13,466 nt of DNA from Promethearchaeia archaeon. Lineage in GTDB: Archaea; Asgardarchaeota; Lokiarchaeia; Sigyniarchaeales; SOKP01. Below, in pieces: positions 311-11,751 of this stretch. Location of the stretch: positions 1 to 13,466 of the forward strand of contig JAWOFX010000170.1 of assembly GCA_046497275.1 (NCBI GenBank), in the 5' to 3' direction. Under the pieces are notes generated by a model. It was not told where the DNA came from and searched no databases. It saw nothing but the letters and a program-made list of their open reading frames with translations. The stretch's first letter is position 1. Each line of letters begins with the position of its first letter. Both the position numbers and the translations under genes were made by a program.

Positions 311-1534
311 GTGCTAATTGAAAAATTTTCAAAGAGAGAGATTTTAACGCTTAATGACTTTTTGGAACAGCTAGATTTCAAAAACTTTGATCTTAGAAAT
401 AAGAAAACCAGTGATTTTACTTTATCTCTTGATAGGAAATTTGAAAAAAACCCTCTTAAAATACAAATTGCGTTACCAAAAGATGCTAAAGTAATATCTG
501 ATATTTTTATAAATACATATAAAAATACTTATCCTAACAAAAAATTGGAAAGTACAAGTGAAATTTGCAATATGATTAAAGATCCTAATTTTGAAATAAT
601 TTTATTTAAAGATGAATTTGAAAAAACTATTGGTTGTGTTTTTTTCCATTTAGAATTTGAGAAAAAAAGAGGATATATTTTTGGTTTTGTTGTTAAGAAA
701 AATTATCAGAAAAACTATGATATCCTGAAAGGATTATTAGGTTGTTTTATTTATTTATGGGATAAATATAAAAACAAAATTTTACTTTGGTATGGGGAAG
801 CTAGGACAAATGAAACAGGAGCCCAATATATTGGGTCTTTATGTGGGATTTATCCTATTGCATTCTATCCAAATAAAGATATCTTTCTAGATTGCATCGA
901 ATCAGAAATTTTACAAATAGCATATGAAAAAAATGCCTTAGAAAAATATCGAAGTAAAAAACCCATTAGATTGATTCGTCAAGTATTAAATGTGTATATG
1001 TATTCTAATAGTAGATATAATTTAGATAAACCTATAATTGAGAATCCAGAAGTTAAAATAACCCAAGTAAATAAACTTAAAGACGATTTAATAATAAAAA
1101 CGAGTAGAGATAGATTCGGTATAGGATATGTAGAATTTTCTCTTAAAAACAAAAATTCGTATTTTAGATTTTTACATAATCCCTATGTACAAAATTTCGA
1201 AAAAGTTGAATATCATGTCAATAATATGAAAGAATTATGCGTATTCCTTCAAAAATTGAAAAAACATATTCAAAAATTGAAAATAAGATATTGTGAATGT
1301 TTTGTTTCAGCTTACTCTCCTGTTCATCAGAAATGTTTCCTAAATGCAGGATTTCATCCAAGGGGATATGTCCCAAGTTGGGAATATAACAAAGATTTTA
1401 AAGAATTTGAAGATCGAATAGTTTTCAATTATTCTGATGGAAAAATTAAAAAGGAAATGAAATTAATTCCTGAATCAAAGGAACTTGTCAGATTGTTTAA
1501 TGATTCAGAAATAGAATTAATAGATTTTTTTTAA
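311..1534 (+). CDS. GNAT-fold N-acyltransferase-like protein, probably two GNAT-like halves plus an N-terminal extension of about 46 aa
   Basis: 407-aa ORF with a GTG start right after an in-frame TAA. GNAT-like elements: LKIQIALPKDAKVISDIF, IGCVFFHLE, GYIFGFVVKKNYQK and WYGEART. The second half ends in a GNAT-like CECFVSAYSPVHQKCFLNAGFHPRGYVP. Confidence 0.7.
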   Translation: MLIEKFSKREILTLNDFLEQLDFKNFDLRNKKTSDFTLSLDRKFEKNPLKIQIALPKDAKVISDIFINTYKNTYPNKKLESTSEICNMIKDPNFEIILFKDEFEKTIGCVFFHLEFEKKRGYIFGFVVKKNYQKNYDILKGLLGCFIYLWDKYKNKILLWYGEARTNETGAQYIGSLCGIYPIAFYPNKDIFLDCIESEILQIAYEKNALEKYRSKKPIRLIRQVLNVYMYSNSRYNLDKPIIENPEVKITQVNKLKDDLIIKTSRDRFGIGYVEFSLKNKNSYFRFLHNPYVQNFEKVEYHVNNMKELCVFLQKLKKHIQKLKIRYCECFVSAYSPVHQKCFLNAGFHPRGYVPSWEYNKDFKEFEDRIVFNYSDGKIKKEMKLIPESKELVRLFNDSEIELIDFF

Positions 1535-1596
1535 TTTGTTAATATAATTCCTAGATAATATATTAAATTTATATTTTAATAAATAAGATCAATTTT

Positions 1597-2604
1597 ATGG
1601 ATTTAAGTATAAGAGAATTAAATGATCCACAAGAGATTATTAAATATTTACAAATAGGAATCAGTATCCCGATTTGGCCAGAATTTAATAGATATATATT
1701 GGATGATTTTCACTATTATCATGTGAGATCGTTTCTTCTTAAAATAGACGGAAATCTAATTGGAAATGTTTTAGTATTTGAAAGCAATAACATCTTATAT
1801 TTTGGATATTTCCGGATTATAAATCACAATGAAAGATTTATCGAGTATTTAGTTGATCTCTTAATAGATTATGCTAAAGAGAAAAAATTAAGAAAAATTA
1901 TAGGACCGATAAATATTCCAGTGATTATATATGGTTGGGGATTTATGAAAGAAGGCAGTTCTGAAAGTTTATTTTCTACAAAGCCTGCAAATCCTCCAAT
2001 TTATCAAAAAATATTTATTAAAAAAGGGTTCAATATAAGATTCGAAGAAGTTTCTTGGGAAGGTTTTTTCCTACCTATAGATGTTAATAAAATAAAACAA
2101 TTTGACTTTTCTGAATATGAGTTTTTTTATCCAAAAAATTTAGAAGAATGTTTGGATCTAAAAGATATTTTTTTAAAATTAAATTCTGAAAATTTCCCTG
2201 ATTATGCTAAAATTACTCCTAAAATTTCAGCACGTTTTAGTAATTACGTACAATATGTTTATGAATTTGGACATAAATTTATGATTTTTTTTGTTAGGCA
2301 TAAACCAACAGATGAGATCGTTGGATGCAGTTCTTGTTTACCTAATCCATTTAGAAAAAATAATAAAGGAAATTATGATTCATTAATTGCTTACACAATG
2401 TCTGTTAGCAAAAAACATAGAAATAAGGGAGTAGCACTATTATTATATGGACCTCCAAGTATTCAAGCCTGGAAAAAAAAATTTAGATATATTTCATCAC
2501 CAACAGAAGAAAAAAATAAGAGATTTGGAAATTTCGCTAAAAGTATTAATTTAGAAAAAAAAAGAGTTCATTACACTTTAGAAATCAATCTTTTAAATCC
2601 CTAA
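1597..2604 (+). CDS. Tandem GNAT-fold protein, YghO-like N-acyltransferase family
   Basis: 335-aa ORF. FGYF...LIDYAKEKKLRKIIGPIN...G...NPPIYQKIFIKKGF matches the pattern I recall for YghO-like GNATs. The C-terminal half has a GNAT motif A (MSVSKKHRNKGVALLL). Confidence 0.7.
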   Translation: MDLSIRELNDPQEIIKYLQIGISIPIWPEFNRYILDDFHYYHVRSFLLKIDGNLIGNVLVFESNNILYFGYFRIINHNERFIEYLVDLLIDYAKEKKLRKIIGPINIPVIIYGWGFMKEGSSESLFSTKPANPPIYQKIFIKKGFNIRFEEVSWEGFFLPIDVNKIKQFDFSEYEFFYPKNLEECLDLKDIFLKLNSENFPDYAKITPKISARFSNYVQYVYEFGHKFMIFFVRHKPTDEIVGCSSCLPNPFRKNNKGNYDSLIAYTMSVSKKHRNKGVALLLYGPPSIQAWKKKFRYISSPTEEKNKRFGNFAKSINLEKKRVHYTLEINLLNP

Positions 2605-2665
2605 TTATTTGATTCTTTTTAATGTAAAGCTTAACTAAGAAATAAAAAATGAAAAGTGAAAAAAA

Positions 2666-3520
2666 TTGTTTGAAGATAAAAAATTAGATGTCTGGTCAAA
2701 ATCCTATTGGAATCATATTAAAAGAAATATCGGAATTGTTAGCAATGATGAACAAGAACAGATAAGAAATACCCCTATTGCAATCCTAGGGTTAGGAGGG
2801 TTAGGAGGGCCCTTATCTGAGCAACTAGCTAGGATCGGATGTGAAAAACTTTTAATTTATGATAATGATATTTTTACTTCTTCAAATTTAAATAGACAAA
2901 TATGTACTAAAGAGGATTTAGATAAAAGCAAAATTTCTTTTACTGAAAAATTATTAAAAAAAATTAATCCAGAAGTAAATATTAGAAAATATAATAAATT
3001 AGATGAGCTAAATATTTCTAAAATTTTAGAAAATATATCTATTGTTGCATTAACTTTAGATGATCCTTTAAGATCTATAATAATTGCGCGAGAATGTGAA
3101 AAACAAAATATTCCAATAATTGAATCATTTGGAATCCCTTATTTATGGTCATGGTGGTTTAATCGAAAAAGTATTGATTATGAAACATGTTATGATTTTA
3201 AAACAAAAAAGTTGAAAATTTCAGAAATGAAAAAACATTCGAAAGAACTATTAGATATTAAAAAGACCGTTTTGCCAAAACTTTTACAATTTCCTGGTCT
3301 CAACGATATATACAATAGAAAATTAAAATCAATGGATGGTATGATTTCTGGGCAATTACCTTTTGTAACTTTTGCCCCAATAACAAGATTGACTTCTTCT
3401 TATATGGCATTTGATATTATTTATTCCGGTATTTTAAAAATAAAAAAAAAGATCTTGGCTCCTAATATATTAGGTTATGATTATTATAGAATGAGAGAAA
3501 TTAAATTCCGTGTTAAATAA
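2666..3520 (+). CDS. ThiF/MoeB/E1-like adenylyltransferase lacking zinc-binding CxxC motifs
   Basis: Nucleotide-binding loop ILGLGGLGG, signature DNDIFTSSNLNRQ, downstream Lys (KSK) and TLDD. No CxxC pairs. TTG start. Confidence 0.9.
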   Translation: MFEDKKLDVWSKSYWNHIKRNIGIVSNDEQEQIRNTPIAILGLGGLGGPLSEQLARIGCEKLLIYDNDIFTSSNLNRQICTKEDLDKSKISFTEKLLKKINPEVNIRKYNKLDELNISKILENISIVALTLDDPLRSIIIARECEKQNIPIIESFGIPYLWSWWFNRKSIDYETCYDFKTKKLKISEMKKHSKELLDIKKTVLPKLLQFPGLNDIYNRKLKSMDGMISGQLPFVTFAPITRLTSSYMAFDIIYSGILKIKKKILAPNILGYDYYRMREIKFRVK

Positions 3521-3536
3521 ATCTATAAAAATTTAT

Positions 3537-3575
3537 TTTTAAGTATAATTTGAAATTATTTCAAATTTTAAGTAT
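3537..3575. repeat. Perfect 10-bp inverted repeat AATTTGAAAT-T-ATTTCAAATT (3547-3567) with TTTTAAGTAT direct repeats at 3537-3546 and 3566-3575
   Basis: Read directly from the sequence. It lies between the ThiF stop and the 7-TM gene. Function unknown. Confidence 0.5.
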
Positions 3576-3681
3576 TACATAAAAAATATTTTATCAGTAG
3601 AGAAAGTTTTAATTAGTTTGAAAAAAAATAGTTAGTATAAAAATAAATGAAATTATAATTAGAAATTTGCTTTATCAAAAT

Positions 3682-4392
3682 ATGGAATTAGGTAGGATCA
3701 TCACTATTCTCTTCACACAATTAATAATATCCTTTCTAACTTATTTCCTCGCATATAAGGTTTTAAATAGAAAAAAGAACCATCTGACGATAAATTTAAG
3801 TTTATTTTATATTTTCCTAGGTACTGGGTTTGTTTTGAACGCACTATTCTTAGTATTTTCGAAAACGACTATTATAATGAATTTTTATTTAATTTTGTAC
3901 GTTTTATATTTCCTTGTTATATATCTGATATTTTTTTCTTTTATTTTTGTCTTAATTTTTATTTATGAATTATTACAAATAGATTCTGCTTTTTCTTTAA
4001 AGAGAGATCTAATAGTCATTGTTTTTTATGGTGTTTCAATTTTTTTAATTCTGCTTTTTCCAAATGGAATTACTATAAACGAAACTACTAATTGGAGACC
4101 GGTTTATAGTTGGTTTTTTCTTATTCTAATTTATTTATATTTTACTTCTTTAATATTTATACCAAGCATGTATTTTCTTATTAAATTATATAAAATCTTT
4201 GAAGATTATAATTTAAAGAAAAAAATGAAATATTTTTTAGTTGGTTTAGGAGGAATGATGATTATATTTTATGGTTCAATATTATATAATACATGGAATG
4301 AATCTTTATTTGCTATAATATGGCCAATCATTAATTTCTCTGTAGTTCCATTCGTATTATTAATTTACTTTGGAATTGGGCGAAATTTGTAA
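3682..4392 (+). CDS. Stand-alone polytopic membrane protein with about 7 TM helices (resembles 7-TM sensor domains)
   Basis: Seven hydrophobic stretches counted by eye, with short loops (GITINETTNWRPVYSW; basic EDYNLKKKMK) and no soluble output domain. The ATG at 3682 is preferred over the TTG at 3667. Confidence 0.75.
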   Translation: MELGRIITILFTQLIISFLTYFLAYKVLNRKKNHLTINLSLFYIFLGTGFVLNALFLVFSKTTIIMNFYLILYVLYFLVIYLIFFSFIFVLIFIYELLQIDSAFSLKRDLIVIVFYGVSIFLILLFPNGITINETTNWRPVYSWFFLILIYLYFTSLIFIPSMYFLIKLYKIFEDYNLKKKMKYFLVGLGGMMIIFYGSILYNTWNESLFAIIWPIINFSVVPFVLLIYFGIGRNL

Positions 4393-4564
4393 AAGGATAT
4401 TATCAAGAAGAACCTTTTCCTTTAGTAAATTTTTTTAAAAAGACTTTTTGTTTTATATCACTCTTCAATTAGACTCTCTTTATTAGATCGATGGATTTTT
4501 GGAGGTCTAAATTTAAATATGATTATTTTTATTAAGTTTTTGTATAAGAATATTGTCGAGTGAT

Positions 4565-4954
4565 ATGGACACTCTTAATGAATGGAAATTAAAAGATAAT
4601 CTAGTTAAATTTAGGAATTTATTAGCAAATGCTAAAAGTTTAAGTAATAATTTTTTGGTTAATTCTAAAATAAGAAAGAGTAAATTGTTTTTTAGTTTAA
4701 AGGAAATAAAAGCATATGAAAAAAGAGATTTTCCTCGAAAAATCATATTAACTGTCTCTTTTAATCCTGAATTCTATTCCATAAAATCATTCGAATTAAA
4801 TAACAATCAAAAAAACGGGAAAATCCCAAATCAATTGTATTCTATAAAAATTGAAGGTAATAACAACATTGCTGAGATGATCAAAAATCTAAATGATATA
4901 ATTCGAGGAAAAGATCAAACAGTTTTTAATCCAAATCACGCTTTCTCGATATAA
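4565..4954 (+). CDS. Hypothetical protein of about 129 aa
   Basis: Open frame from TTG4553 or ATG4565 fills the gap between the 7-TM gene and the convergent kinase. No motif recognised. Confidence 0.55.
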   Translation: MDTLNEWKLKDNLVKFRNLLANAKSLSNNFLVNSKIRKSKLFFSLKEIKAYEKRDFPRKIILTVSFNPEFYSIKSFELNNNQKNGKIPNQLYSIKIEGNNNIAEMIKNLNDIIRGKDQTVFNPNHAFSI

Positions 4955-5020: not shown

Positions 5021-7528
5021 TTAATTAATAATAGGAAGTGAAAAATAGAATTTACTCCCTTTATTTCTTCCCTCAGAATTCAACCATATCTCTCCTTTAT
5101 GTAAATCTATGATTCTTTTTGAAATATAAAGCCCTAAACCAGTTCCATCGATATCTACATCCCACCCTTGCCCCCATCTCTCTATTTTACCAAACTTTTT
5201 GAAAAGATATTTCTTTTCCTCCTCTTTAAAACCAATTCCATTATCCTCAATTGAAATTATAATTTTTGAATCATATTTTTCCGATTTTATTTTTATAGTT
5301 CCGCCTGGGGGTGTATATTTTATAGCATTTGATAGTAAATTTGTGAGGACTTTGTGAATTTGTTCTTCATCAAATTTTAATGTTAAATCCTCATGGAGGT
5401 TCGATTCGATTGTATGATTTCTTGATTTTGCAAACCCCTGCATTTCTTCGATACATTTCTTAATTAAAATACTTAAATTTGCTTTTTTAGTTTTGATTCT
5501 TAATTTTTTTTGTTCGAATCTAGAGCTTTCCAACAATTTATTTACAATTGTCTCTAATTTTCTACATCCTGTTTCAATACTTTTTAATATCGAAATCATT
5601 TCTTGAGTTAGATTTTCACTATAAAGGATCTTCATCAATTCAGCGTATCCCTTAATCGAAATTAGTGGTGTTTTTAATTCATGTGCGACCCTCGAAAATA
5701 ATTCTGCTTTTAATTTATCCATTTCATGCAGTCTTATATTTTGCTTTCTTAAATGTTGTGTCGCCTTCCATCGCTTTTGTTCTATTTCGATTGCATCAGC
5801 GATTAAAAATAAAACTAATTGATTTTGAGCAGATTTTTCTAGTTTCCCATTAAAAAAACAGCAAATTATACTATTAGAAGTATCATCTGACGTTATTTTT
5901 TTTCCAAATGCAGTTACATAACGATTATTCTTTATAAACGGGTCTGTTTTTGAATATTTTGAATTATTTCTATCAATATTATAATATTGTAAAAAATCAT
6001 GATTTTTCTTGAAAAAATTATTTAAAAAATAATTGGTTTCAAACTCATCCTTGCTTAGAGAGAATTTGTTGTTTTCAGTTGATAATAATTGAAAAAATTT
6101 CTTTTTACCTCTATTATATTCGCTAACGTAGACCACGGAGGCTGCATTTAACAATTTTTTGCATGTTTTTAATAAAGTCTTAATATTATCTTGAATCTCA
6201 GTACTGAAATTTAAGAAGTTCATATTTAATTCAGTAATGAGATCTTCATATTTCTTGCGTTCTGTGATATCTTCCAACCAAAACCTAAGTGTTATTAATT
6301 CACCTGCTGAGTTATAATGATTTACATATTTCCCGGAGATCCACTTTAATTCCCCCTTATTATCATTAATTTTAAATTCTAATTTCTTATTATCGTTCGA
6401 TTGAACTTTCTCTTTTAAATCTTGAATTGGAACATATTTTTTGATTTCATTTTCGGTCACTTTCTCTTTCTTGTCAAAACCTAGAATTTCTATTAATTTA
6501 GGATTGATATATGAAATATTATTATTGACTAAATTTAGTTCCAAAATACCAACTGATGAAGTCTCTATTAAATTTCGATATTTTTGTTCTGATTCTCTTA
6601 ATTTTTTATCTTTTTCTATCTTTTCCGTTATATCTTGGAACGAAACTAATATCCCAACAATTTTTTCTTCCAAATCTTTTAATGGAACTCTATTAATATC
6701 TATTATTAGAGGGCTATCAGTTGAACCCTCCCAAATTTCTTCTCTATGATATATTGACTCTCCGGTTGTTAATATTTCCTTTTCTTTTCGATTTAATTCA
6801 TTAACTCTTTCAGCGTTAGAAAAAATATTATTATTTGTTTTTCCAATTAATCTTTCTGGAGAATTTATCCCAATTAGCTTGGCATAATTGTTATTACACC
6901 CTAGATAATTAAGATCATTATCCTTCCAGTAAATATATTGAGGAATATTATTAATCACTAATTCTAGCATTTCATAGGATCTATTTAATGCTTCCTCATA
7001 CTTTTTAGGAGTAAATAATCTCCAAAATTTAATTTCTGGAATTGATTTTGTTATAGTGTTTAAATCTTCTTCGCTGTTTTTAATTTGTTCCTCCAATTCT
7101 TTAAAACGAGAGATTTCTTTTAGGATAACTAAAATTTTATCTCTATCATGATTATCTATATATCTTGTTTTTTTAATTTCAAACCAGACTAATAATCCAT
7201 TTTTTGTTTTAATTCGTATATCTTTTTCAAGTTCTTTGAATTCTTTTTTACCATCTAAAATATGATTTACTTGCTCAACATAAGATTGATGGACTATCTC
7301 TAAAAATGAATTATGAATAAGATCACTTTCACTATAATTCAATGATTTTTTCCATTGTATCTCATTTATAAATTCCATCTTGTATGGAAAAGATGAGCTA
7401 AGGATGGCAACCAAATCATTTATATTTTCTAAAATTAAGTGAGGCTTCATCTTACCATTGACAATTTCTTTCGACATGCCACTATATTTATTAACAAAAT
7501 CCATTATTTTTAACGATAGTCTAGTCAA
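5021..7528 (-). CDS. Soluble sensor histidine kinase (3 PAS, GAF-like, HisKA, HATPase_c)
   Basis: H-box VAHELKTPL (His codon 5681-5683), N-box NLLSNAIKYT, G1 EDNGIG, F-box LFKKF and G2 GTGLGL. The PAS/PAC repeats end in KEIS, QDITE and EDITE motifs. No TM segment. The start may be the ATG at 7504 or later. Confidence 0.95.
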   Translation of the reverse strand: MTRLSLKIMDFVNKYSGMSKEIVNGKMKPHLILENINDLVAILSSSFPYKMEFINEIQWKKSLNYSESDLIHNSFLEIVHQSYVEQVNHILDGKKEFKELEKDIRIKTKNGLLVWFEIKKTRYIDNHDRDKILVILKEISRFKELEEQIKNSEEDLNTITKSIPEIKFWRLFTPKKYEEALNRSYEMLELVINNIPQYIYWKDNDLNYLGCNNNYAKLIGINSPERLIGKTNNNIFSNAERVNELNRKEKEILTTGESIYHREEIWEGSTDSPLIIDINRVPLKDLEEKIVGILVSFQDITEKIEKDKKLRESEQKYRNLIETSSVGILELNLVNNNISYINPKLIEILGFDKKEKVTENEIKKYVPIQDLKEKVQSNDNKKLEFKINDNKGELKWISGKYVNHYNSAGELITLRFWLEDITERKKYEDLITELNMNFLNFSTEIQDNIKTLLKTCKKLLNAASVVYVSEYNRGKKKFFQLLSTENNKFSLSKDEFETNYFLNNFFKKNHDFLQYYNIDRNNSKYSKTDPFIKNNRYVTAFGKKITSDDTSNSIICCFFNGKLEKSAQNQLVLFLIADAIEIEQKRWKATQHLRKQNIRLHEMDKLKAELFSRVAHELKTPLISIKGYAELMKILYSENLTQEMISILKSIETGCRKLETIVNKLLESSRFEQKKLRIKTKKANLSILIKKCIEEMQGFAKSRNHTIESNLHEDLTLKFDEEQIHKVLTNLLSNAIKYTPPGGTIKIKSEKYDSKIIISIEDNGIGFKEEEKKYLFKKFGKIERWGQGWDVDIDGTGLGLYISKRIIDLHKGEIWLNSEGRNKGSKFYFSLPIIN

Positions 7529-7754: not shown

Positions 7755-8648
7755 TTAGATTAAATTCGAAATAATCTGTTGAAGCTCTTTATATCGAGAC
7801 CGAAGAGTTACCTCAGTCACACCCACAATATTGGCGATCTCCTTCTGGGATATCTTTTTATTCTTCAGTTTTGATACCAGATAAATTGCTCCCGCACATA
7901 ATCCTTTCGGATCTTTTCCACAAATCGGAAATTTGCTCATAAAACTTCTTAAAATTTTAATGGAATTCTTCTCAACGTCAATAGATAGCCCTAAATCAGC
8001 ACAATATCGTGGAATTAAAGAAGTTGGGTCAATATTCGGTGATTTGAGATGTAACTCTCGAACCAAGATTTTGTAACATTTTTTTACGATATTATCGCTG
8101 ATTGAAGCTTCATCCAAAATCTCTTGTAAAGTAATCGGTACACGCTCCTCTTTACATTGATAATATGCGCATGCTGCAATCATACCATTGATGGATCTTC
8201 CACGCAATAAATTCTTTTTATAGACCCTTTTGTACAACTTTACCGATGCCTTCTTGACGCGTTCGGGAAAATTTAAGTTGCTTCCAATTCTTTTTAGTTC
8301 GGTAATCGCAATCAACATATTACGTTTTTCCCACGATAAATGAGTATTCCATTTTGCTGCTCGCCGGAGGTCTGGATTTTTAATTTTAGATCGATCAATA
8401 ATCGTTGATAAACCAATATCAGGCATTAAAATGGAAATCGGACACCCCGTTCTCTCTTTCCTATCCTTTTCCCTTTTCGTATATGCCCTGATTCCGCTAT
8501 GACCAAGGTCTAGTGAGCGCTCCCCGACAACCAATCCGCATTGCTTGCAGACTGTATCCCCGCTGTCGTCAATTGTAATTGTATTGCCTCCACATTCCGG
8601 ACATAGATTTGTAAGTTCATAACTTGCAATTCTGTGTGTTTCAACCAT
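7755..8648 (-). CDS. tfb: Transcription initiation factor IIB (TFB) paralog
   Basis: Zn ribbon CPECG...CKQCG, ERTG linker, cyclin repeats with GRSINGMIAA and GKDPKGLCAGAIY, and C-terminal HTH SQKEIANIVGVTEVTLRSRYKEL. Confidence 0.96.
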   Translation of the reverse strand: MVETHRIASYELTNLCPECGGNTITIDDSGDTVCKQCGLVVGERSLDLGHSGIRAYTKREKDRKERTGCPISILMPDIGLSTIIDRSKIKNPDLRRAAKWNTHLSWEKRNMLIAITELKRIGSNLNFPERVKKASVKLYKRVYKKNLLRGRSINGMIAACAYYQCKEERVPITLQEILDEASISDNIVKKCYKILVRELHLKSPNIDPTSLIPRYCADLGLSIDVEKNSIKILRSFMSKFPICGKDPKGLCAGAIYLVSKLKNKKISQKEIANIVGVTEVTLRSRYKELQQIISNLI

Positions 8649-8778
8649 TTTTTAGTAAAACCCCTATGTTATTAGAAAAATCGTTCCTGCTTTTTTTATT
8701 CGACAAAAAAATCTTTTTGTGTATTCAAAATTCTTTTTTTATCAAATTTTGCATTATATACAAAATATGTCACTTCCA

Positions 8779-8794
8779 TATTTAAATGTTTTTG
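8779..8794 (-). promoter_or_regulatory. Candidate BRE/TATA promoter for tfb (5'-CAAAAACA-TTTAAATA-3' on the - strand)
   Basis: A TTTAAATA box preceded by an A-rich BRE-like run, about 130 nt upstream of the tfb ATG. The AT-rich background weakens the call. Confidence 0.4.
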
Positions 8795-8868
8795 TGTAAA
8801 AACGGATTTTTGTTCTTGTATGCAGAACGAACAAAAATACTTTTGAATCTATGATACTCTGACGGGTT

Positions 8869-9003
8869 TTAATTAGTATTTGTAAGAGCGATGGGAACAC
8901 CGTCCCATTCACAGCAAGAAATGGATTTTTTCTCTTTCACCTTGTTAAATATCATTCTAAGGAATTTTCTCCCTATTTTGGAAATTGTTATCTTTTTTAT
9001 CAA
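8869..9003 (-). CDS. Possible small protein (44 aa from TTG9003, 28 aa from ATG8955)
   Basis: Hand translation from ATG8955 gives MIFNKVKEKKSISCCEWDGVPIALTNTN. It spans the one GC-richer patch of the divergent intergenic region. Confidence 0.25.
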   Translation of the reverse strand: MIKKITISKIGRKFLRMIFNKVKEKKSISCCEWDGVPIALTNTN

Positions 9004-9164: not shown

Positions 9165-9208
9165 ATTTAGTGCATTATTTCTCAAACGCTCTCTTCCTGA
9201 CAAAAAAA

Positions 9209-10132
9209 ATGAGGTTCTACCATATGAAAAAGCGAATTGATGAAACAGTCGAGGAGTACATTGAACGACTAGAGAGTTCACCTAAGGGTGATAAAACCTA
9301 TGAAATGATCATATATGAACATGAAACTGGCAAGTATGCGATTTGGCGGGGGGTAATCACAGAGGGATTTAAAAGATGGCTTCGAGGGGAGAAAATTTAT
9401 GACCGAGATAAGGAACGAATCTCGCTCTATGTATCGGAAAATACAAAAGATGACTGGCAGAATTTTATAGAACAAAATAATATTTCTACTTTATCAAAAT
9501 TAATAAGGGAGAGCGTAAAGAAATTTGTAGCAGATCATAATAATGCAAATGAGAGATTCTCGAAGATCAATCCTGAAACGCTCTCTAAAATCTCGCATGC
9601 ATTAAAAGAGCCTTTGACCACTATTAAGGGATATGCTCAGCTTATCTTAGATAATTACCAAGAAGAGCTTTCCGAACAAATTATTAGTACCATTAAAAAT
9701 ATTTTTGATCAAAGCATTTCATTAGAAAATAAAATCATCAAATTTTTAGATAATATTCAAATTCCTAACCATCAGTATGATATTCTCTTAATTGAAGATA
9801 ATTTAGCAACAATACGCTTGATCACTTCATATTTAGAAAGTAAAGGTTATATTTGTAAAGGAGTGATTAGTGGTAAGAGAGGATTGGAAGAAATTGAGAA
9901 CACATATCCAAAATTAATACTTTTAGATATAATTTTACCTGATATTAATGGCTATGATATTTGTAAGCAAATTAAATCGAAAAAAAAATATAGAGATGTC
10001 CCAGTTTATTTTCTTACCGCGTTGCCGGGTTCAGAAGTCGAGAAGAATATCAAAGATACTCAAGCAGATGGATATATCTTAAAGCCATTTAATTTGAGTG
10101 ACTTTAACAAATTATTTGTTCATTTGGAGTGA
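9209..10132 (+). CDS. Response regulator A: unknown N-terminal module, RHH-like domain, HisKA-like hairpin, receiver domain
   Basis: RHH-like KERISLYVSE-helix-STLSKLIRESV; H-box-like SHALKEPLTTIKGY; complete receiver (IED, LLD253 in track numbering, LTA, LKPF). No HATPase. Possible starts are GTG9170, ATG9209 and ATG9224. Confidence 0.88.
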   Translation: MRFYHMKKRIDETVEEYIERLESSPKGDKTYEMIIYEHETGKYAIWRGVITEGFKRWLRGEKIYDRDKERISLYVSENTKDDWQNFIEQNNISTLSKLIRESVKKFVADHNNANERFSKINPETLSKISHALKEPLTTIKGYAQLILDNYQEELSEQIISTIKNIFDQSISLENKIIKFLDNIQIPNHQYDILLIEDNLATIRLITSYLESKGYICKGVISGKRGLEEIENTYPKLILLDIILPDINGYDICKQIKSKKKYRDVPVYFLTALPGSEVEKNIKDTQADGYILKPFNLSDFNKLFVHLE

Positions 10133-10344
10133 AGAAGCAATAAATTTGATTGATTCCTTTATCTTTTTTATAGGTTTGAATTTAAGAAACATAATTAAAT
10201 GAAATATCCAATTGAATGTATGAGCGAGAGATTAGATTAGCACAAGTATTATTTTATAATGGTAAAAAAACCAATTCATTTTTTAATATTATAAAAAAAA
10301 AAGATAAATTAACGTACATATATTAAAATTGTGTAAAGAATTTT

Positions 10345-11340
10345 ATGCAAGAGTTAAGAAAGGTGAGTAAAATTACCAAGAAAAAAAACGAAGAAAGCGC
10401 AGAGAACAATTCTAAAAAAAAAAAGTCCCATAAAACTTTTACCCAAGAAGAAATCGATCAAATTATTGAAGACCATAAAAATGGAAAAATCTCAGATGAG
10501 ATTAAAAGACTAATGGATCAATATGAGGATGAAATGGGAAAATATGCTGTTTGGAGAGATCAGATTACTGAGGGATTTAAAACATATTTAGAGGGAGGTA
10601 AGATCTATGATAGAGATAAAGAACGTATTTCTCTATATGTTTCAGAAGAAACTAAACAGATATGGCAAGATTTTATCAAAGAAAAGAATTTTAGCACTAT
10701 TTCAAAACTCATAAGAGAAAGTGTAAATAATTATATTGAAGAAAAAACCAAGGGAATAACAAATAATCCTGATTTGGATACCGAGACTATTTCCAACCTT
10801 TCTCATACCTTAAAAGAACCATTGACCACTATAAAAGGATTTAGTCAACTTCTCTTAGAAGAAAGTAAAGATGAATTAAGTATGGAAGTATTATCGAAAA
10901 TAGAGAAAATATTTGAACAAAGCAAACTTCTTGAGACAAAAATTCGCAATATTCTGGATAACATTACAAGAGAAACTTCCCAATATGATATTTTATTGAT
11001 TGAAGACGATCTTTCGACTATAGACTTATTATCAACTTACTTTGAAAGTAAAGGATACTCCTTTAAAGCAGCCATTAATGGTACGAAAGGAAAAGAGGAA
11101 TTACGTCATTCTAAACCGAAACTCATAATTTTAGACATCATTTTACCTGATATAAGTGGGTATGATATATGTAAGATGATTAAATCTGATAAAATCCTCA
11201 AAGACATACCCGTCTATTTATTAACAGCGATTCCCGGGTCAGAAGTTGAGAAAAAAATTGACGAGATTAAAGCAGATGGATATATTTTAAAGCCATTTGA
11301 TTTTTCTGAGTTTGATCAATTGTTTAAATATCTGGAATAA
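10345..11340 (+). CDS. Response regulator B, tandem paralog of A with the same architecture
   Basis: Aligns without gaps to A over 272 aa at about 60% identity (hand count 162/272). Contains SHTLKEPLTTIKGF and receiver motifs IEDD, ILD264, LTA and LKPF. Confidence 0.9.
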   Translation: MQELRKVSKITKKKNEESAENNSKKKKSHKTFTQEEIDQIIEDHKNGKISDEIKRLMDQYEDEMGKYAVWRDQITEGFKTYLEGGKIYDRDKERISLYVSEETKQIWQDFIKEKNFSTISKLIRESVNNYIEEKTKGITNNPDLDTETISNLSHTLKEPLTTIKGFSQLLLEESKDELSMEVLSKIEKIFEQSKLLETKIRNILDNITRETSQYDILLIEDDLSTIDLLSTYFESKGYSFKAAINGTKGKEELRHSKPKLIILDIILPDISGYDICKMIKSDKILKDIPVYLLTAIPGSEVEKKIDEIKADGYILKPFDFSEFDQLFKYLE

Positions 11341-11379
11341 ATTACAATCAAAATATTCCATTATATTTTTCAAAATGAA

Positions 11380-11483
11380 CGGGCCATGTGGGATTCGAAC
11401 CCACGACCTTTCCCCAGTTAACCTTAGATTGGTTAGCTTTCAGGTTAAGAGCCTGCTGCGCTACCTGCCTGCGCTAATGGCCC
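11380..11483 (-). tRNA. tRNA-Lys(CTT) with a non-canonical intron of about 30 nt (best fit 11410-11439, position 43/44)
   Basis: Acceptor stem GGGCCAT/ATGGCCC with G73, D-stem GCGC/GCGC, anticodon loop CT-CTT-AA (anticodon 11447-11449) and T-arm GTGGG-TTCGAAT-CCCAC. The extra hairpin-forming sequence lies 3' of the anticodon stem. CCA is not encoded. Confidence 0.9.
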
Positions 11484-11649
11484 AATATTTAGTTAATTTA
11501 GCTAAGAGTCTTTTTCTAAAATATACATAACAAAATTCATAATTCAATAAGAATTTTTCCAAAAGAATTTGGTGATTATAAGCCTTAGATACAATATGTG
11601 AAGATCTAATTTCATAAATTTATTCTTGTCTTATTAAGAAAATCAAGAG

Positions 11650-11751
11650 CGCAGGTGGAGGGATTCGAACCCCCGAGCGCTTGCGCACACTGGCTAACTT
11701 GGCTGATTCAGCACTCAAGGCCAGCGCCTTACCAGGCTAGACTACACCTGC
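11650..11751 (-). tRNA. tRNA-Ser(TGA) with a canonical 37/38 intron (11696-11713, 18 nt)
   Basis: Acceptor stem GCAGGTG/CACCTGC with G73, anticodon stem CTGGC/GCCAG, long variable arm, and T-arm GGGGG-TTCGAAT-CCCTC. Strict BHB: central helix CTTG/CAAG, bulges AGT and TTA, inner hairpin GCTG-AAT-CAGC. CCA is not encoded. Confidence 0.96.

Follow-up and report, generated by a model that had tools for sequence, protein, structure and literature searches.

The window analysed here is the whole of contig JAWOFX010000170.1 (13,466 nucleotides, nt), from the 3.85-Mb, 98.9% complete genome of a Promethearchaeia archaeon (assembly GCA_046497275.1); it is A+T-rich, with 24-36% G+C. Its centre of interest is a pair of co-oriented paralogous genes encoding putative transcription regulators that combine a ribbon-helix-helix (RHH) unit with parts of a two-component system. 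Gene 1, the copy closer to a divergent gene for the initiation factor TFB, runs from 9170 to 10132 (+) and encodes 320 amino acids (aa) when read from the GTG at 9170, ATG codons at 9209 and 9224 being the other start candidates. Gene 2, the distal copy, occupies 10345 to 11340 (+) and encodes 331 aa. Both were taken from the list of open reading frames (ORFs) with their translations and were assigned by Pfam, gene 1 through its HisKA and Response_reg matches. Their products align over 275 aa with 59% identity and no gap (E 4e-107) and share the same order of parts, namely a small N-terminal module, the RHH, a DHp/HisKA hairpin and a receiver (REC), after which each protein ends directly. An earlier note, made from the letters of this DNA, had described two such ORFs with an RHH-like unit, a HisKA-like hairpin retaining its His and an intact C-terminal receiver, lacking an ATPase domain and lying near a complete kinase and a TFB paralog. 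Both ORFs are indeed present, as are the strings ERISLYVSE, STxSKLIRESV and SH[AT]LKEPLTTIKG, the neighbours are those claimed, and Pfam detected no HATPase_c domain in either regulator. The three parts named in that note were all recovered, but the parts number four, the N-terminal mini-module having been overlooked.

The RHH was placed at residues 91-136 of protein 2 (10615 to 10752, +) on profile, fold, dimer-model and conservation evidence, and at residues 80-125 of protein 1 (9407 to 9544, +), where the strand ERISLYVS is followed by two helices, by gap-free alignment to gene 2. Pfam RHH_1 aligned end to end (positions 1-39 of 39) with residues 94-133 of protein 2 at E 0.056 and 13.9 bits, under its cut-off of 20.5, and DUF6290 matched the N-terminal region at E 0.015; searches of Pfam and NCBIfam with the N-terminal 130 residues gave nothing significant. 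When a profile of 31 family members was compared with the PDB, the best match was the CopG-family regulator 7by2 (E 0.0077, in register), and the ParD-like 5ceg and ORF56 (2k9i) were also listed. The top rows of Foldseek were RHH proteins (ORF56, ParD2, YiiF, MazE9), all with E above 1, and no row against the PDB reached E 0.001. VIA-align, run against 48,161 chains, returned mostly RHH proteins among its top 40 rows, the matching region being residues 87-140 of protein 2: ParD2 (Z 5.1, root-mean-square deviation 3.9, 48 residues aligned), TacA1 (Z 5.0), NikR (Z 4.8, deviation 1.8, 41 aligned) and the RHH of PutA (Z 4.7), values to be read with the tool's own remark that a Z under 8 is common for chance matches. 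The absolute scores being modest even for a domain of this size, it is the consistency of these hit lists that argues for an RHH, and a call that had been made by eye now has some support from sequence-profile and fold searches.

The AlphaFold monomer contains the two RHH helices and leaves the strand unpaired; in the dimer model described below, strand 91-101 pairs with its twin, so that the strand-helix-helix arrangement is seen in models, at modest absolute scores. Across 122 close homologs there is no variation in R94, S96 and Y98, which face outward on the strand, or in T118/S120, which cap helix 2, a pattern that would fit one conserved DNA target. The unit thus resembles those of CopG, Arc, MetJ, ParD and NikR in its strand followed by two helices, in its modelled strand-paired dimer and in the R-x-S-x-Y alternation of polar and basic residues along the strand. 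The RHH proteins described so far are either small repressors or bear tails that bind ligands or toxins, with NikR adding a metal-sensing domain and PutA adding enzymes. To our knowledge, no known RHH protein carries a DHp hairpin and a receiver after its RHH.

The DHp/HisKA hairpin directly follows. It spans residues 135-195 of protein 1 (9572 to 9754, +; His143 codon 9596-9598) and residues 146-206 of protein 2 (10780 to 10962, +; His154 codon 10804-10806), and both proteins pass the Pfam HisKA (PF00512) cut-off of 26.9 bits, with 29.9 and 36.7 bits respectively, in keeping with the His-bearing hairpin described earlier. In the structure model of protein 2 its helices cover residues 146-173 and 180-206. 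Two copies of residues 33-210 of this protein were modelled as a dimer with an interaction prediction score from aligned errors (ipSAE) of 0.55, against 0.00 for the best control; in the benchmark, this value was reached by 20 of 30 proteins solved as one-chain pairs and by 1 of 23 solved as single chains. Contact agreement between runs was at least 82%, and the predicted local distance difference test (pLDDT) of the partner was at least 66. The interface is formed by RHH strand 91-101 against its twin, by the RHH helices and by DHp residues 152-203, the mini-domain (residues 33-90) staying outside it. Because many solved structures contain RHH or DHp dimers, the score should be regarded as a likeness to known dimers, not as proof of one. 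It is nevertheless well supported that the RHH needs a partner chain to form the two-stranded ribbon that reads DNA, and equally so that the DHp four-helix bundle directly behind the RHH supplies a stable dimer. Heterodimers of the two paralogs are possible.

The H-box of the hairpin is atypical. Protein 2 has S-H-T-L-K-E-P, and the regulators in general have H-A/S/T-L-K-E-P where the neighbouring kinase has H-E-L-K-T-P. Among the 122 close homologs the residue after the His (H+1) is A in 114, S in 6 and T in 2, and H+4 is E in every one. HisKA kinases and phosphatases use an acid at H+1 and T or N at H+4; the regulators have neither, the adjacent kinase both (E and T). The His itself (H154) is kept in 122 of 122 close homologs and in 14 of 25 distant representatives, and in about 10 of the 25 it is replaced by Y, F, L, V, R, K or E. 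Since the distant members that keep the His mostly have a canonical H-D/E, the family probably descends from a true kinase or a hybrid kinase.

The receiver was found at residues 205-319 of protein 1 (9782 to 10126, +; phospho-acceptor Asp253, codon 9926-9928; Pfam E 3.5e-20) and at residues 216-330 of protein 2 (10990 to 11334, +; Asp264, codon 11134-11136; E 1.2e-19), joined to DHp helix 2 by a linker of about 10 residues. Response_reg (PF00072) scored 72.7 and 70.9 bits, the cut-off being 30.2; the family profile matched solved receivers such as RpaA (E 8.4e-18), and the modelled receiver has pLDDT above 90. In the alignments with RpaA and DivK, D264 falls in the region of their acceptor Asp. 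The acidic pocket, phospho-Asp, Thr and Lys reported before are intact, E220, D221, D264 and K316 (protein 2 numbering) being invariant in the 122 close homologs and T294 likewise save for one Ser. A receiver is present in 24 of the 25 distant representatives, and the Asp is kept in all 24. With the Asp retained in 24 of 24 distant receivers and the His in 14 of 25, the Asp therefore looks like the indispensable input.

In the genome as a whole there are six receiver domains, of which three are stand-alone (121-138 aa), one is followed by a 170-residue C-terminal tail with no domain assigned and two belong to the regulators; there are also 12 HisKA matches besides the regulators and 15 HATPase_c matches, and the histidine kinases number about 13. 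As judged from these domain assignments, the two regulators are the only receiver proteins of the genome with a recognisable DNA-binding part. The design proposed here shares with the OmpR/PhoB and NarL regulators a DNA-binding dimer under receiver control, as well as the same receiver residues. In those families, however, the receiver is N-terminal, the output is a winged helix or helix-turn-helix and dimerisation takes place via the receiver, whereas the present proteins have a built-in DHp bundle. A C-terminal receiver behind a DHp is instead reminiscent of hybrid kinases, and indeed, within NCBIfam, it is the C-terminal receiver of the hybrid kinase HrmK that is matched best, but hybrid kinases keep an ATPase domain between the two.

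As an alternative, the proteins might serve as phosphorelay hubs, in which the DHp His and the receiver work as a phosphotransferase of the Spo0B/ChpT type, passing phosphate from a kinase to Asp264, to His154 and on to the stand-alone receivers, or in reverse, with the RHH as a dimer cap or a means of localisation. DHp-only phosphotransferases such as Spo0B and ChpT are an established kind, and they share with the regulators a His-bearing four-helix-bundle dimer without autokinase activity; they differ from the regulators in retaining a degenerate ATPase-like domain and in lacking both a receiver and a DNA-binding part. The His and its flanks are invariant in the 122 close members despite the missing ATPase domain, the H-box lacks the residues for autokinase and phosphatase activity, as textbook knowledge of HisKA would predict for a pure phosphotransfer site, and the three stand-alone receivers could accept the phosphate. 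Yet the His is replaced in about 10 of the 25 distant representatives, those with a receiver keeping the Asp and the RHH strand, and the invariance of the DNA-facing RHH residues would be needless in a mere dimer cap. We thus consider a hub in place of a regulator unlikely, although it is compatible with DNA binding and both functions could coexist. It is far less probable still that the proteins are kinase decoys. In that case DNA binding would be incidental, and signalling by true histidine kinases would be damped because the kinase-less DHp dimerises with them or docks their ATPase domains. The H-box region does resemble that of the adjacent kinase (HxLKxPLxxIKG in both), and the genome has about twice as many kinases as receiver domains, but nothing speaks specifically for such a role, and it would leave unexplained the strong homodimer model and the universal presence of the RHH and the receiver Asp.

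The regulators are accompanied by two genes on the opposite strand. The TFB gene (7755 to 8648, -), divergent from gene 1, encodes a zinc ribbon and two cyclin repeats (Pfam TFIIB E 3.3e-38, Zn_Ribbon_TF E 2.2e-10). The genome has ten TFB-like genes, two of which pass the cut-off of 384 bits of the equivalog model NF001658; since the window TFB scores 248 bits, it is a paralog and not the canonical copy. That it might be the housekeeping TFB, as its conservation of 71-92% and its housekeeping neighbours elsewhere could suggest, was considered and ruled out by its rank of 5 among 10 in equivalog score. Further upstream of gene 1 lies a histidine kinase gene (5021 to 7528, -) for an 835-aa cytoplasmic protein with the Pfam architecture PAS-HisKA-HATPase_c. 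As a separate observation, another TFB paralog (C44:110260-111126) adjoins two histidine kinase genes (C44:107019-107702 and 109443-110093), forming a second neighbourhood of TFB and two-component genes.

Conservation of this neighbourhood was examined in 24 related loci from eight genera, most of which contain a tandem regulator pair. A divergent TFB ortholog, 71-92% identical, stands upstream of the regulator or regulators in 19 of them (seven genera), and the loci without this link are three of one other genus (g2) and two that are cut off by contig ends. A kinase is a far less regular companion: in g2, the two regulator genes flank a kinase core that shares 59-73% identity with that of the window, and a related core is adjacent only in the window, in g2 and, more loosely, at locus L007. 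The earlier suggestion of a self-contained phosphorelay therefore stands for the TFB link, which is conserved, but not for the kinase link, which is sporadic; the PAS kinase at 5021-7528 is a candidate cognate kinase. In a tree of 39 regulators, proximal and distal copies separate in most genera; the deep split is weak (support 77/93), and one old duplication likely lies behind the two copies.

The intergenic region between the TFB gene and gene 1 contains a candidate promoter or operator at 8780 to 8800 (+), made of the palindromic TATA-like ATTTAAAT followed by GTTTTTGTGTAAA. Upstream of TFB in 14 of the 19 loci, 114-188 nt from the TFB gene, we found the composite of ATTTAAAT, a gap of 2-7 nt and TTTTGT(T)GTAA, and the composite pattern has no other occurrence in the 533 kb of those loci; these patterns were picked once the data had been seen, and the loci are themselves related. 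The 21-mer ATTTAAATGTTTTTGTGTAAA occurs twice in the 3.85-Mb genome. Its second copy (C89:152-172) has the same orientation and lies about 83 nt upstream of a gene for a 605-aa AMP-dependent synthetase, a possible second regulon member. The element might alternatively be understood as the promoter of TFB, with an extended, paralog-specific factor B recognition element (BRE) read by TFB itself in an autoregulatory manner and not as the operator of the regulator, in which case the gene linkage would reflect shared regulation and not control of TFB by the regulator. On the TFB coding strand the conserved word indeed lies directly upstream of the ATTTAAAT box, which is the place of a BRE, and the orientation and distance of the second genomic copy agree with a promoter role. 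Against this, further copies of the TTGT(T)GTA word stand nearby without a TATA box: the 15-nt word AAAT[C/G]TTTTTGTGTA has a second copy at 8709 to 8723 (+), 75 nt from the copy at 8784-8798, as a direct repeat with 93% identity, and TTGTGTA is found at 10329 to 10335 (+), 16 nt upstream of the ATG of gene 2. The word family TTGT(T)GTA is about 11-fold enriched there relative to other non-coding DNA, again with a pattern chosen after seeing the data, and TTGTGTA has four copies in the window where 1.15 are expected, three of them in the DNA flanking the regulator genes. Repeated short words are what RHH repressors such as MetJ and omega read, and would suit the regulators. Promoter-only use by TFB is thus a real possibility, to which we give less than even odds.

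Other searches of this DNA were less informative. The 15-nt word has three exact copies in the genome and, with up to two mismatches, shows no genome-wide excess (99 occurrences, 114 for the reversed control). The words yielded by a first operator hunt, which used k-mer enrichment, were inconsistent in position, no enrichment in the window was seen for the patterns TGTKRTAA and TTGTKDTA, and the intergenic DNA contains no small ORF of note. A G+C-rich palindrome, GATGGGAACACCGTCCCATTC, is present at 8890-8910 in otherwise A+T-rich intergenic DNA; the RNA fold of the G+C-rich stretch 8850-8960 was not significant (z -1.44).

Taken together, we propose, with a probability of roughly 0.6, that each of the two genes encodes a homodimeric RHH transcription regulator that is controlled by phosphorylation and linked to the TFB paralog. 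One or more of the approximately 13 histidine kinases, the PAS kinase being one candidate, would phosphorylate Asp264 (Asp253 in protein 1). The topology established for HisKA kinases suggests that the receiver, the RHH and the His lie at the same pole of the bundle, and phosphorylation might alter the packing of the receiver on this DHp/RHH pole and, in turn, change DNA binding. The DHp would mainly serve dimerisation and signal transmission, and its His, which never varies in the core family, could in addition pass phosphate to or from the receiver, being predicted to form neither a kinase nor a canonical phosphatase site. The likely targets would be the regulators' own promoter region and the divergent TFB paralog, and an altered set of initiation factors would amplify the two-component signal. 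The mini-module would be a separate part, most likely for binding a partner.

Several observations weigh against this proposal. Judged by absolute values, the resemblance to RHH proteins is weak (E of 0.0077-0.056 by sequence and above 1 in Foldseek, with Z no higher than 5.1). A plain receiver-switch model offers no explanation for the strict retention of the His, together with E at H+4 and P at H+5, in all 122 close homologs. Adjacency of the kinase is not conserved and is absent even from a locus of the same genus (L055), and two sister families (f3 and f4) have the regulator and no TFB within 7 kb. Finally, the cis element is in the BRE position relative to the TFB gene, where TFB itself could read it, and the hindsight in its patterns and the relatedness of the loci, mentioned above, count on the same side.

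The N-terminal mini-module connects these regulators with a wider set of proteins. In protein 1 it covers residues 46-73 (9305 to 9388, +), with the motif ETGKYAIWRGVITEGFKRW, on a profile match (E 6.8e-22) and alignment; in protein 2 the mini-domain spans residues 33-90 (10441 to 10614, +), with its core motif at about 10513-10596 and a pLDDT of 90-95 in the AlphaFold2 model, which consists of two helices, a beta-hairpin and a helix. The motif, ETGKxAIWxGxxT..[F/Y].xW, is about 30 residues long. The mini-domain had no match in Pfam, among PDB sequences (by profile), among the folds searched by VIA-align or in the ESM Atlas, and longer fused forms of residues 40-145 were not found, an observation of limited weight. 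The same motif ends subunit A' of RNA polymerase at its extreme C-terminus (C83:4257-4367 of the window genome), where a variable lysine/glutamate-rich linker of 45-60 residues is followed by ETGKxAIWxGKxT..Y.xW. This A' tail is conserved across five genera, and a sister family has two tandem copies; no paper on it was found in the literature. Elsewhere in the genome (C9:792-908, C186:3611-3730, C172:88992-89168, C100:64513-64611 and C151:13384-13467) the motif is carried by an ABC ATPase, N-terminally, by a protein with a GIFT/ABC_transp_aux domain, C-terminally, by one of 263 aa, in two copies, and, again C-terminally, by a membrane protein and an LRR protein. Most copies outside the regulators and A' adjoin a charged, lysine-rich stretch. 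The motif was present in all 27 sampled genomes of the order, that of the window excluded, and absent from the 93 genomes taken from the rest of the phylum.

The module might be a protein-protein tethering element specific to the lineage and, being fused to the C-terminus of A' via the lysine/glutamate-rich linker as well, may bring the regulators and RNA polymerase to a shared partner or to each other; we regard this idea as speculative and rather doubtful. If it were true, the archaea most closely related to eukaryotes would have histidine-aspartate signalling physically coupled to their transcription machinery, and the module on A', if real, would mark an accessory contact of Asgard RNA polymerase. 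Variant architectures were also seen in metagenomic proteins: in P0171, an Arf-like GTPase precedes the mini-motif and a receiver, RHH and DHp both being absent; in P0177, two RHH-DHp units occur without a receiver; P0174 is extended at its N-terminus by a long stretch related to the LRR protein; and P0200 has motif repeats only. There may be assembly chimeras among them.

The regulators are confined to a single order. Of 400 genomes of the phylum, 137 were matched by a profile of the N-terminal half; the matches cover 130 of the 134 genomes in the window's own family, 4 of 4 in a second family and 2 of the 14 in a third, with none in any other family. Among 1.84 billion cluster representatives, 82 matched at E 0.001 or better; the window genome has exactly two copies. 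The protein of gene 2 has 1836 homologs, of which the best 120, including Lokiarchaeota/Promethearchaeota proteins, all combine HisKA and REC in 275-355 aa. The architecture is not the new class that the earlier note had taken it for, as an RHH-HisKA-REC design was listed for Lokiarchaeum sp. GC14_75 in the 2018 census of Galperin et al. (J Bacteriol 200:e00681-17, PMC5847659). With the order RHH, HisKA, REC in a Lokiarchaeial protein of about 300 aa, the present proteins have the same domain order, come from the same lineage and fall within the class of that census. It was catalogued there and not characterised: the census gives it one sentence, with no mini-module, TFB synteny, atypical H-box, distribution or experiment, and our literature search found no other paper on the architecture and no experimental study. 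Added here are the order-confined distribution, the TFB synteny, the cis element, the atypical H-box and the mini-module in common with RNA polymerase A'. Most archaeal regulators have no DNA-binding output (Galperin et al. 2018, PMC5847659). The route from archaeal two-component systems to transcription is largely obscure, and these regulators offer a testable path from kinase to regulator to initiation factor; since the order has cultured relatives, both this path and the module on A' are open to bench work.

Among the remaining features of the window, the region 311-4954 contains an adjacent gene pair (407 and 335 aa) whose GNAT-like matches are weak, a ThiF/E1-like gene (2666-3520) and a further two, of 241 and 133 aa, without a family match; this gene set was not seen beside the regulators in the three loci read for gene content. 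Downstream of gene 2, ARAGORN reported no tRNA in the window, although Rfam found two tRNA genes, at 11380-11483 (-; 55.9 bits) and at 11650-11751 (-; 47 bits). The ORF at 11297-11530 overlaps the first of them and is probably spurious. The two tRNA genes span 104 and 102 nt, so that each probably contains an intron.

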